Shown: positions 21,045 through 23,222 of the stretch, piece by piece | Layout: every line of letters starts with the position of its first letter | Position numbering within the stretch: the stretch's first letter is position 1 | Origin: an uncultured Candidatus Saccharibacteria bacterium | Lineage (GTDB): Bacteria > Patescibacteriota > Minisyncoccia > Phycocordibacterales > UBA9973 | Length of the DNA stretch: 64,000 bases | Reading direction: 5' to 3' | Assembly (NCBI GenBank): GCA_964554645.1 | Contig: CAZKPK010000001.1 | Coordinates: 3,697 to 67,696 of the forward strand | The notes under the pieces: generated by a model | Told to the model about the DNA's origin: nothing | The model's input: only the letters and a program-made list of their open reading frames with translations | Databases searched by the model: none | Position numbers and translations under genes: made by a program

Positions 21045-23222
21045 ATGGAAAAAATAGAAGCTAAAAAGAAAATACAGAAATTGCGAAGCGAAATCGCGCG
21101 ATTGAGAAATGCATATCACATAGAAAATGCGCCGAATGTTACCGATGACGTTTATGATTCTCTAACTCGCGAATTGAAAGAAATTTTACAAAAATATCCG
21201 GAGTTCAAAGACGAAAATTCAGGAGAGAACAGAGTGGCAGGCAAACCACTGGATAAATTTGTCAAGGTAAAACATCAAAATAGAATGCTCTCTTTAAACG
21301 ACGCTTTCTCTTATGAAGAGCTCTATGATTGGGAGAAAAGGGTAAAAAGATTACTTGGCGGTTTAACCGCCAAGTTAGAATATTTTTGTGAAGTAAAGTT
21401 TGACGGTCTGGCGGTGTCATTAATTTATGAAGATGGAAAATTTGCGCAGGGCGCAACTCGCGGAGATGGATTTGTTGGCGAAGATATAACCCAAAATTTG
21501 AAAACTATACATTCGATTCCTCTAGAATTACCCCCTCCCCTTAATAAGGGGAGGGTTGGGGAGGGGTCAATTCCCGCATTTCTAGAAGTTCGCGGCGAAG
21601 CGCTAATATCAAAAAAAACACTTATTTTACTTAACAAAAAAAATGCAAAAGAAGGTAAAGCGCTTTTTGCCAACACTCGAAATGCCGCCGCTGGAAGCCT
21701 TCGTCAGCTCGATCCGGAACTTGCCAAAGAAAGGCATTTAGATTTTGTGGCTTATGATTTAAACTTGGCGGTTAAACCGCCAAGTGGCGGTTTAACCGCC
21801 AAGTGGCCACAAAATCATTCTGCTAAACATGAAATGCTTCGAAGTTTAGGATTCAAAGTTGAAAAATTAGAGGCTAAATGCGAGAACTTAGAAAAAGCGA
21901 TATCTTTTACAAAAAAATTTGAAAAAATAAGACCCAATTTTCCATATGGCACAGATGGCATTGTAATATCCGTGGACGATTTAAAATTACAGGAAGTTTT
22001 GGGTGTTGTCGGCAAAGCTCCGCGCTATATGGTGGCCTTTAAATATCCAGCCGAAAAAGCAACTACTTTAGTAAAAGAAATTTTGATTAATGTCGGGCGC
22101 ACTGGCGTTTTAACACCGCTGGCAATTTTTGAACCAACCTTGGTCGCGGGTTCGCAAGTGTCCAAAGCGACTCTGCATAATATGGATCAAATAGAGCGTT
22201 TGGATTTACGAATCGGAGATACCGTGGTGATCGAAAAAGCGGGCGATGTCATTCCAAAAGTGGTGGAAGTATTGGCTCGGATGCGCACTGGCAAAGAAAA
22301 GAAATTTAAAATGCCAAATAATTGTCCGACTTGTGAGGGGAAGGTGGAAAAGAGAAAGTTGCCAGCGCAACAATCTGTCGCTTACTATTGTTCGAATCCA
22401 AAATGTCCAGCCAAGGATGAAAGATATTTGGAGCATTTTGTGTCCGTGTTTGAAATTTACGAACTTGGCCCAAAAATTTTAAGCCGTTTTAAAGATGAAG
22501 GACTGATTACCGACGCAGCCGATATTTTTACGCTGACGAAGGAGGAAATAGCGCCTTTGGAACGATTTGGGGAAAAGTCCGCAGAAAATATTATTAAAGA
22601 AATAGAAAGCAAGAAGAAAATTACGCTTTCCAAATTTCTTTGGGCGCTGGGGATACTCCATGTGGGGGAAGAGACAGCGCGAGATTTAGCGGATCATTTT
22701 GGAACTTTAGAAAAATTTATATCTTTAATTAGGCAAGAGAAAAGTTTGAATAATTCTCCCGCCTTCGCCCTCGGAGACAAAGGACAGGGGACCCACGGCT
22801 CCTTGAATTCTTCAAACTTTTCTCTTGATATAGAAAACATCGGTCCGGCGGTATCAAAAAGCCTTTATGATTTTTTTGGCGATAAGCGTAATTTAGATTT
22901 TTTAGAAAAGTTGCAAAAAAACGGGGTGGTGGTGGAAAAAATGGAAAAAAGAAAGGCGGGAAAATTTACCGGATTTACTTTCGTTTTAACCGGCACGCTC
23001 TCGCAAATGTCGCGCGAAATTGCCAAGGAAAAAATAATTTCTTTAGGCGGTAAAGTGGCGGGTTCTGTTTCTAAAAATACTTCTTATGTAATAGCTGGCG
23101 TTGAGTCCGGTCATTCCGACTCTGAGAGTCGTCAGACTCGAATGAGCTCCAAACTCAAAATTGCCGAAAGACTAGGGGTAAAAGTAATAAACGAAAAAGA
23201 TTTCTTAAATATGCTACACTAA
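21045..23222 (+). CDS. ligA: NAD-dependent DNA ligase
   Basis: 725 aa; adenylation KFDGLAV, OB fold, CPTCEG..C Zn finger, HhH, C-terminal BRCT (FVLTGTL). Confidence 0.97.
21354..21374. repeat. family C palindrome (single) inside ligA
   Basis: CTTGGCGGTTTAACCGCCAAG (21 nt), translated LGGLTAK. Confidence 0.9.
21531..21567. repeat. GC-rich palindrome inside ligA
   Basis: CCCTCCCCTTA-A-TAAGGGGAGGG (21533-21555) + TTGGGGAGGGG; translated [12 protein letters not shown] between conserved IPLEL and [10 protein letters not shown]. Confidence 0.8.
21764..21803. repeat. family C palindrome doublet inside ligA
   Basis: CTTGGCGGTTAAACCGCCAAG + TGGCGGTTTAACCGCCAAG; translated [13 protein letters not shown]. 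Confidence 0.9.
22734..22827. repeat. 94-nt hairpin element with 17-nt perfect terminal inverted repeats inside ligA
   Basis: CAAGAGAAAAGTTTGAA (22734-22750) vs TTCAAACTTTTCTCTTG (22811-22827); GC-rich centre; translated [31 protein letters not shown]. Confidence 0.75.
23112..23144. repeat. 33-nt alternating-hairpin insert in ligA BRCT region
   Basis: CGACTC-TGA-GAGTC-GTCA-GACTC; translated [11 protein letters not shown] between AGVESG and SKLKIA. Confidence 0.6.

Follow-up and report, generated by a model that had tools for sequence, protein, structure and literature searches.

Repetitive extragenic palindromes (REPs), the REP doublets forming hairpins (REPINs) and the REP-associated tyrosine transposases (RAYTs) are well described, as in the E. 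coli TnpA-REP system (4ER8) and the REPINs of Pseudomonas. Such systems comprise short hairpin repeats in multiple copies, either single or paired in inverted orientation, a pair folding into one long hairpin, together with a Y1/HUH transposase gene flanked by its own repeat; several enzyme-repeat pairs are found per genome, and no target-site duplication is left. In this study, we describe a repeat that resembles them in these respects (as to the inverted doublets, at the level of the sequence), named Family C, in a stretch of 64,000 nt from an uncultured Candidatus Saccharibacteria bacterium (contig CAZKPK010000001.1; hereafter the window, to whose whole length all position numbers refer). 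Its palindromes lie within the genes for DNA ligase (ligA) and the RNA polymerase beta' subunit (rpoC), and they are probably REP copies of a REP/RAYT system of the Patescibacteria, or candidate phyla radiation (CPR). Family C is not a new kind of element; what seems to be undescribed is the presence of a known kind in this group (CPR) and in this location, translated inside essential genes. A literature search combining REP/RAYT with CPR, Patescibacteria or Parcubacteria returned no relevant paper, which is not proof of absence.

Several features set Family C apart from the known REPs. Its 11-bp stem is nearly perfect, the asymmetry being confined to the centre base; roughly half of the copies lie inside genes and are translated; and the host phylum is the Patescibacteria. 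The associated enzymes are also longer than 4ER8_A (212–231 aa versus 165 aa) and usually have the repeat inside their own open reading frame (ORF). In other phyla, REP singlets and tight dimers lying in frame in known genes have been reported by Di Nocera et al. 2013 (PMC3733652), with an enrichment in genes of replication and repair, among them a DNA ligase gene of Opitutus terrae, a species in which the dimers are 1–2 bp apart; these intragenic copies are a minority, most REPs being intergenic, and the Rickettsia palindromic elements RPE-4 and RPE-6 were identified in the same work as intragenic REPs of the CGTC type. Family C shares with these GTAG/CGTC elements the in-frame singlets and close dimers and the DNA ligase hit, and differs from them in being about half genic, in a strong frame bias that can be quantified, and in belonging to another sequence family that carries no tag. 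Rickettsia palindromic elements (RPEs) also lie in frame within essential genes, in a bacterium with a reduced genome, where they are translated and tolerated in surface regions; the RPE-1 types are far longer than Family C (about 100–150 nt) and have no associated transposase. The IS200/IS605 elements (IS608, ISDra2) likewise rely on a Y1/HUH enzyme acting on single-stranded end hairpins and cause no duplication, but in their case the multi-copy unit is the whole gene-bearing element, whereas in Family C it is a hairpin of 19–23 nt alone.

Family C palindromes in ligA, rpoC and other genomes

The palindrome ACTTGGCGGTTWAACCGCCAAGT is present in five copies in the window, three of them in ligA (one singlet, one doublet) and two in rpoC (another doublet), all five in frame with the host gene. 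A 17-mer core, TGGCGGTTWAACCGCCA, has exact matches starting at 21356, 21766, 21785, 53553 and 53578, against 0.02 expected by chance from shuffled sequences, and none of 100 shuffles attained five. Including its flanks, the unit measures 23 nt and is a palindrome, ACTTGGCGGTT-W-AACCGCCAAGT, asymmetric at the centre base alone; its length is within the size range of REPs (about 20–40 nt). The ligA gene (21045..23222, plus strand) encodes an NAD-dependent DNA ligase of 725 aa, recognized by Pfam (PF01653, PF03120, BRCT; adenylation, OB, HhH and BRCT domains) and by its similarity to E. coli LigA (2OWO, E 1e-138); apart from the Family C singlet and doublet, it hosts at least three other small inserts. 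The rpoC gene (50120..53791, plus strand; 1223 aa) was identified by Pfam and by comparison with solved structures.

The singlet, which like the other palindromic features is given without strand, occupies 21353..21375 (ACTTGGCGGTTTAACCGCCAAGT, T centre) and is translated as (L)LGGLTAK(L); its inner part, CTTGGCGGTTTAACCGCCAAG at 21354-21374, has TTA triplets on either side (21351-53 and 21375-77). The ligA doublet, also translated, is a 42-nt palindrome with 20-nt arms (21763..21804), in which an A-centre unit, CTTGGCGGTTAAACCGCCAAG at 21764-21784, is immediately followed by a T-centre unit, TGGCGGTTTAACCGCCAAG at 21785-21803. The letters and positions given for these elements by the original prediction, a model's reading of the sequence alone, were confirmed by direct reading of the ORF, as was the direct fusion of two units; the second unit, however, is 19 nt long instead of the 21 nt proposed, so that the period is 19 nt. 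In rpoC, the doublet extends over 53546..53597 with a GCGCGC shell and is translated as ARLAVKPPSALGGLTAKA. Its two units have a 25-nt period and a CGCG spacer, and positions 53552-53595 form a perfect 44-nt palindrome reading RLAVKPPSALGGLTAKA (RpoC peptide across the doublet, LAVKPPSALGGLTAK). Folding of the single-stranded DNA gave −11.5, −24.8 and −30.5 kcal/mol for the singlet, the ligA doublet and the rpoC doublet, respectively, with z-scores from −7.4 to −8.0. An Rfam search of the whole window at gathering thresholds returned no match.

The distribution of the repeat was determined by an exact scan with a 19-mer, TTGGCGGTTWAACCGCCAA, against 185,579 genomes, one per species (596 Gb), and the recovered loci are designated here by L-numbers. 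The scan yielded 82 loci, all but four of them in Patescibacteria or unclassified metagenome-assembled genomes (MAGs), while we calculate that about four matches would be expected by chance in such a collection. At least 39 CPR species carry the 19-mer, with up to 12 exact copies within the recovered loci of a single MAG; the carriers include Nomura-, Giovannoni-, Zambryski-, Campbell- and Kaiserbacteria, Paceibacterota and MAGs labelled Saccharibacteria. Viral contigs gave one match, which has different flanks, lies inside a TGGCGG-rich repeat and is consistent with chance. Slightly more than half of the copies (55 of 104) are inside open frames of at least 150 codons, the remainder being intergenic, so that the extragenic location typical of REPs does not hold for Family C. 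The host genes are unrelated: they encode UvrC, GatB, RpoB, TatD, Mur ligases, SecA, AtpG (ATP synthase gamma), DprA, MiaA, KsgA, glycosyltransferases and LigA. Family C is therefore repeated DNA and not a conserved peptide; the original prediction had itself raised the possibility of a motif confined to ligA and rpoC and conserved there as protein sequence, and its view of a repeated palindromic DNA, translated in frame inside essential genes, is supported by the presence of the motif in many unrelated genes and in intergenic DNA of at least 39 species.

In four uvrC genes (L002, L019, L035 and L059, from Giovannonibacteria and one Parcubacteria MAG), a Family C copy is found at apparently the same position, with near-identical flanks (cgattat.ttac...ggc.gcgc), and UvrC domains were found by Pfam in four of the host ORFs. 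It follows that a copy inside a gene can be retained across speciation events. CRISPR was ruled out as the origin of the repeats, as there is no array, and so was an assembly artefact, Family C being present in dozens of independent assemblies.

Reading frame, flanks and turnover of the copies

Four of the six combinations of reading frame and centre base leave the Family C unit free of stops, and the other two create a TAA, either with an A centre in the LGGLTAK frame or with a T centre in the LAVKPPS frame. Tabulation of frames and orientations over 104 copies, a check suggested with the original prediction, revealed a strong bias: the 55 genic copies are read as LAVKPPS with an A centre (25), as LGGLTAK with a T centre (26) or as WRxNRQ (4), and the non-genic ones are evenly distributed over four classes (14/12/12/11). 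At most one gene is interrupted by the unit's TAA; had frame played no part, this would be the expected outcome of one third of insertions. The bias and the near-absence of such interruptions imply that the copies are translated and filtered by selection. The sole candidate for a gene broken in this way is in L009 (~6858, minus strand), where 102 and 124 open codons flank the unit in one frame.

Singlets predominate, doublets accounting for only eight cases among 112 core copies. All eight doublets are genic, and all have opposite centres (A/T or T/A), never A/A or T/T. As the periods of 19 or 25 nt shift the frame by one, the two tolerated frames can both be used only if A is followed by T. 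The ligA doublet had been described as inverted, and the opposite centre bases are indeed present in the sequence, but orientation can be read from the centre base alone, and that base is dictated by the reading frame, in which the other one would produce TAA. The inverted structure, as known from REPINs, is thus inseparable from frame selection in this set of genic doublets.

The bases next to the 19-mer are AC...GT in 82–89% of the copies, followed by CC...GG in about half of them; this consensus, (CC)AC...GT(GG), is symmetric on both sides and belongs to the stem. Direct repeats in the flanks were near chance level at all four boundary choices tried, with units of 19–25 nt, over the 104 copies. 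The TTA triplets at 21351 and 21375, previously taken as a possible 3-bp target duplication, are consequently not evidence of one: the flanks are complementary, not directly repeated, and no consistent duplication is found. For the same reason, a transposable element of the miniature inverted-repeat kind (MITE) or a classical DDE-type element was discarded as a candidate. The lack of target duplication fits what a Y1 transposase leaves.

In 22 of 81 full units (27%), at least four further bases of locus-specific sequence are complementary (e.g., cccccac...gtggggg), the Family C unit being often at the centre of a larger palindrome. The same CCCCCAC...GTGGGGG shell is found around the Family C unit in L026, L031, L037 and L075 and, with different inner cores, in the window at 30343-30373. 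A shared shell with varying cores suggests palindromes nested in palindromes, or modular hairpins.

The window LigA was aligned with its 60 best homologs, all of them CPR proteins of the Nomurabacteria or Paceibacteria type, the closest being 75% identical, with none closer in a collection of 5.8 billion proteins. Family C segments are missing from most of these orthologs, an outcome in line with the original prediction, which had proposed such an alignment. Three loop positions stand out as insert hot spots, at which most orthologs have a short 'base' loop and others carry assorted, unrelated short inserts. At site 1, GGLTAKL is common to four sequences (the window, P0003, P0006 and P0011), and the difference from the base state is of one codon only. 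In P0003 and P0006, the closest relatives, nothing occupies the doublet site; P0015 has a single LAVKPPS there. Relative to E. coli LigA, the window protein is longer by a net 1 aa at site 1 and by 7 aa at the doublet; the loop bearing the rpoC doublet, which is variable, is 8 aa longer than in the solved RpoC structures. At the DNA level, the orthologous site-1 copy in the ligA gene of L030 is identical across 29 nt in a gene that is 74–77% identical as a whole, and at the doublet site the window exceeds L030 by a net 27 nt (+9 aa), although the doublet measures 42 nt. An unchanged copy in such a diverged gene calls for maintenance, homogenization or re-insertion at the DNA level. A different repeat, ACTTGGTA(TC ACTTGGTA)CTCCGACTACCAAGT and ACTTGGTA..TACCAAGT, fills LigA sites 1 and 3 in L083, the ligA of P0037 (codons ~106 and ~241), and has ACTTGG...CCAAGT ends in common with Family C. 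These observations at the ligA loops hint at older hairpins being replaced in place.

Transposase genes flanked by the repeats

Several of the recovered loci hold three Family C copies at a conserved spacing. In six loci (L010, L016, L033, L045, L052 and L054), exact Family C copies are found at both ends of an ORF of 212–220 aa, with one further copy inside; part of this arrangement, known as a REPtron, is present in L020/L032 and L067. The ORF contains a Y1_Tnp domain (PF01797). The association depends on the enzyme clade: all eight RAYTs that are at least 48% identical to that of L016 adjoin Family C copies, and all five that are at most 43% identical are flanked by other palindromes, a different one in each case. 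It is mainly because enzyme and hairpin covary in this way, which is the REPtron pattern, that Family C is assigned to a REP/RAYT system.

The window itself contains a RAYT-like Y1/HUH transposase gene associated with another REP family (34103..34780, plus strand). Its product is 34% identical to the L016 enzyme (tblastn), and it is not the cognate enzyme of Family C. The start was placed at 34103, where the homologs begin (MSLRD), instead of at 34085, as given by the ORF tool. Among RAYT homologs, the HUH motif (NHFH) and the tyrosines Y120, Y123, Y149 and Y156 are invariant. An AlphaFold (AF2) model of the window enzyme (predicted local distance difference test score, pLDDT, 81) has as its best match in the PDB 4ER8, that is, TnpA-REP bound to a REP hairpin (E 1.6e-6), followed by the TnpA proteins of IS608 and ISDra2. 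Homologs of this enzyme are abundant in CPR, and some have been named 'REP element-mobilizing transposase RayT' by the Joint Genome Institute (JGI).

The palindrome of this second family, CCCATAGGTCNGACCTATGGG, flanks the gene and also lies within it. A palindrome scan located the 5' copy, TCCCATAGGTCAGACCTATGGGA, at 34063..34085, and at the 3' end a 33-nt extended palindrome (34768..34800) holds the stop codon of the gene. The internal copy (34370..34392), directly after the HUH motif, is translated as SHRSDLW and kept in more than 40 homologs. An intergenic doublet of the same family, CCACAGGTCAGACCTGTGG plus CCATAGGTCTGACCTATGG, is situated at 14690..14732, between T2SSE-like and T2SSF-like genes. 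Two homologs of the window RAYT have palindromes with the same core and with outer stems that either match or are compensatorily changed (e.g., CCATAGG..CCTATGG versus GCATAGG..CCTATGC).

Nearly every CPR RAYT gene examined (the window gene and those of L010, L016, L033, L045, L052, L054, L082, L001, L061 and L085) has its own REP inside the ORF and at both ends; the position of the internal copy is variable in the Family C RAYTs, unlike in the window clade. An internal REP could serve autoregulation or result from local hopping. The L085 contig has a second Y1_Tnp gene (4779-5432) at a distance of 5 kb from the RAYT homolog; no perfect GC-rich hairpins are obvious in its flanks.

By analogy with E. 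coli TnpA-REP and the TnpA proteins of IS200/IS605, the Y1/HUH tyrosine transposase would be specific for single strands and would recognize the folded hairpin, cut at its foot and re-ligate it elsewhere with no target-site duplication. With genomes that are about 90% coding, many copies would land in genes, and survival would be limited to copies that preserve the frame, do not introduce the unit's TAA and lie in surface loops tolerant of them, where they are read as LAVKPPS or LGGLTAK. The RAYT would in this manner move or maintain the Family C copies, and we infer that the source genome has a Family C RAYT outside the window.

A number of points weigh against this assignment. Neither a GTAG nor a CGTC tag, by which the described REP superfamilies are marked, is present in Family C. 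The sequence support for the RAYT call is modest: the Y1_Tnp scores of the 212–220-aa ORF (23.6–32.7 bits) are barely over the Pfam gathering cutoff of 23, its only NCBIfam match, REP_Tyr_transpos, reaches 18–24 bits against a cutoff of 80, and no transposase in the PDB was found by sequence, either with a single Family C RAYT as query or with a profile of 22 RAYT sequences. A tblastn search of the window with the L016 protein found no RAYT of the Family C type. A clean empty site was sought in the closest ligA (L030, 75% aa identity) and none was found, the divergence being too great. The net length gains (+1 aa for site 1, +9 aa for the doublet of ligA and +8 aa for that of rpoC) are all below the size of the element; simple insertion is thus not the whole story. 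REPs beside RAYT genes could, moreover, reflect a hairpin preference for that locus. To our knowledge, REP transposition driven by a RAYT has never been directly demonstrated, even in E. coli, for which only binding and cleavage have been shown.

Among the alternatives, hairpin repeats that are autonomous and spread by other means (another transposase, hairpin-targeted insertion or gene conversion), with RAYT genes merely as favoured landing sites, would explain why 27% of the copies are within longer locus-specific palindromes, as if inserted at the centre of existing hairpins, why a given ligA loop is occupied by different palindromes depending on the lineage, and why the net length changes remain below element size, which fits replacement or conversion better than cut-and-paste. 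Such a generic effect, however, would not yield RAYT clades each with its own palindrome at both ends and with compensatory changes in the stem, and no other transposase is consistently nearby; we consider this explanation improbable. We would give a little less credence still to a host-functional signal under selection, be it the site of a dimeric protein, a sequence of the DNA-uptake type, or a terminator or mRNA-stability hairpin. The perfect conservation of the inherited site-1 copy (29 nt) in a diverged gene and the long, terminator-like stems of some intergenic copies would agree with it, and CPR bacteria are thought to take up DNA, but several unrelated palindrome families in one 64-kb window fit poorly with a single recognition signal, the intragenic positions are not conserved among orthologs, Rfam gives no match, and the linkage to RAYTs would be left unexplained.

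Template switching at quasi-palindromes in DNA coding for loops, by which the palindromes would have originated where they stand, is suggested by the net change of only +1 aa at site 1 and by the nesting of palindromes within palindromes. As more than 100 places share an identical 19–23-mer, across dozens of species and unrelated genes, against about four expected by chance in the collection, this mechanism is very unlikely and close to refuted. The notion that LigA and RpoC conserve LGGLTAK and LAVKPPS as functional protein motifs, to which the GGLTAKL shared by the four LigA sequences might point, is refuted, given that identical DNA is translated in two or three frames and on both strands, that it occurs in unrelated proteins and between genes, and that it is absent from most orthologs and from the solved LigA and RpoC structures.

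The genomes of CPR bacteria are very small and densely packed with genes, and unexplained insertions are a known trait of their proteins. If the Family C palindromes belong as REP copies to a REP/RAYT system of the CPR, as we regard as probable, some of these insertions would be REP-type hairpin copies that are translated and linked to RAYT transposases. Segments of the Family C type are not homologous protein sequence and should be masked in annotation and phylogenomics, and assembly has to deal with perfect palindromes of 40 nt within single-copy marker genes. For REP biology, they offer many enzyme-hairpin pairs with compensatory changes and allow the history of insertion, loss and replacement to be read at fixed loop positions. 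A far-reaching extension, which we put forward tentatively and hold to be rather unlikely in its full form, is that REP/RAYT systems have colonized the coding sequence of Patescibacteria at large scale, with enzyme-hairpin pairs co-diversifying and rewriting peptides in the same surface loops (LigA, RpoB/C, UvrC, GatB and PheT), with copies remaining identical in DNA over species-level divergence, and with an internal hairpin that is possibly autoregulatory or self-targeting. In that case, translated REPs would be a systematic source of CPR protein insertions, and REP turnover could be read from protein alignments.

Other palindromes and elements in the window

Further small elements are present in ligA. 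At 21533-21570, a second palindrome family (CCCTCCCCTTAATAAGGGGAGGG then TTGGGGAGGGG) gives a 9-aa excess over E. coli LigA, in a loop that carries many different inserts in LigA orthologs. At 22734-22826, an in-frame element of ~93 nt has terminal inverted repeats of ~23 nt (CAAGAGAAAAGTTTGAAT.ATTC); it is MITE- or RPE-like and resembles the RPEs more than Family C does. As its peptide recurs at another ligA loop (site 3) in several orthologs, this element also appears to be mobile. A small palindrome, CGACTCTGAGAGTCG (23117-23131), lies in a 12-aa insert of the LigA BRCT domain relative to E. coli.

Elsewhere in the window, the pheT gene (ORF 29439..31367) contains three GC-rich palindromes (29540-29562, 30343-30373 and 30622-30642), one of them with a ACCCCCAC...GTGGGGGT outer shell. 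GC-rich hairpins are also found between genes at 9528-9547 (ACTCCGACTTCAGTCGGAGT), 9568-9587 (GACCCGATGACCATCGGGTC) and 15978-15995 (CTCCGACTCAGGTCGGAG), and these may be further repeat families or terminators.

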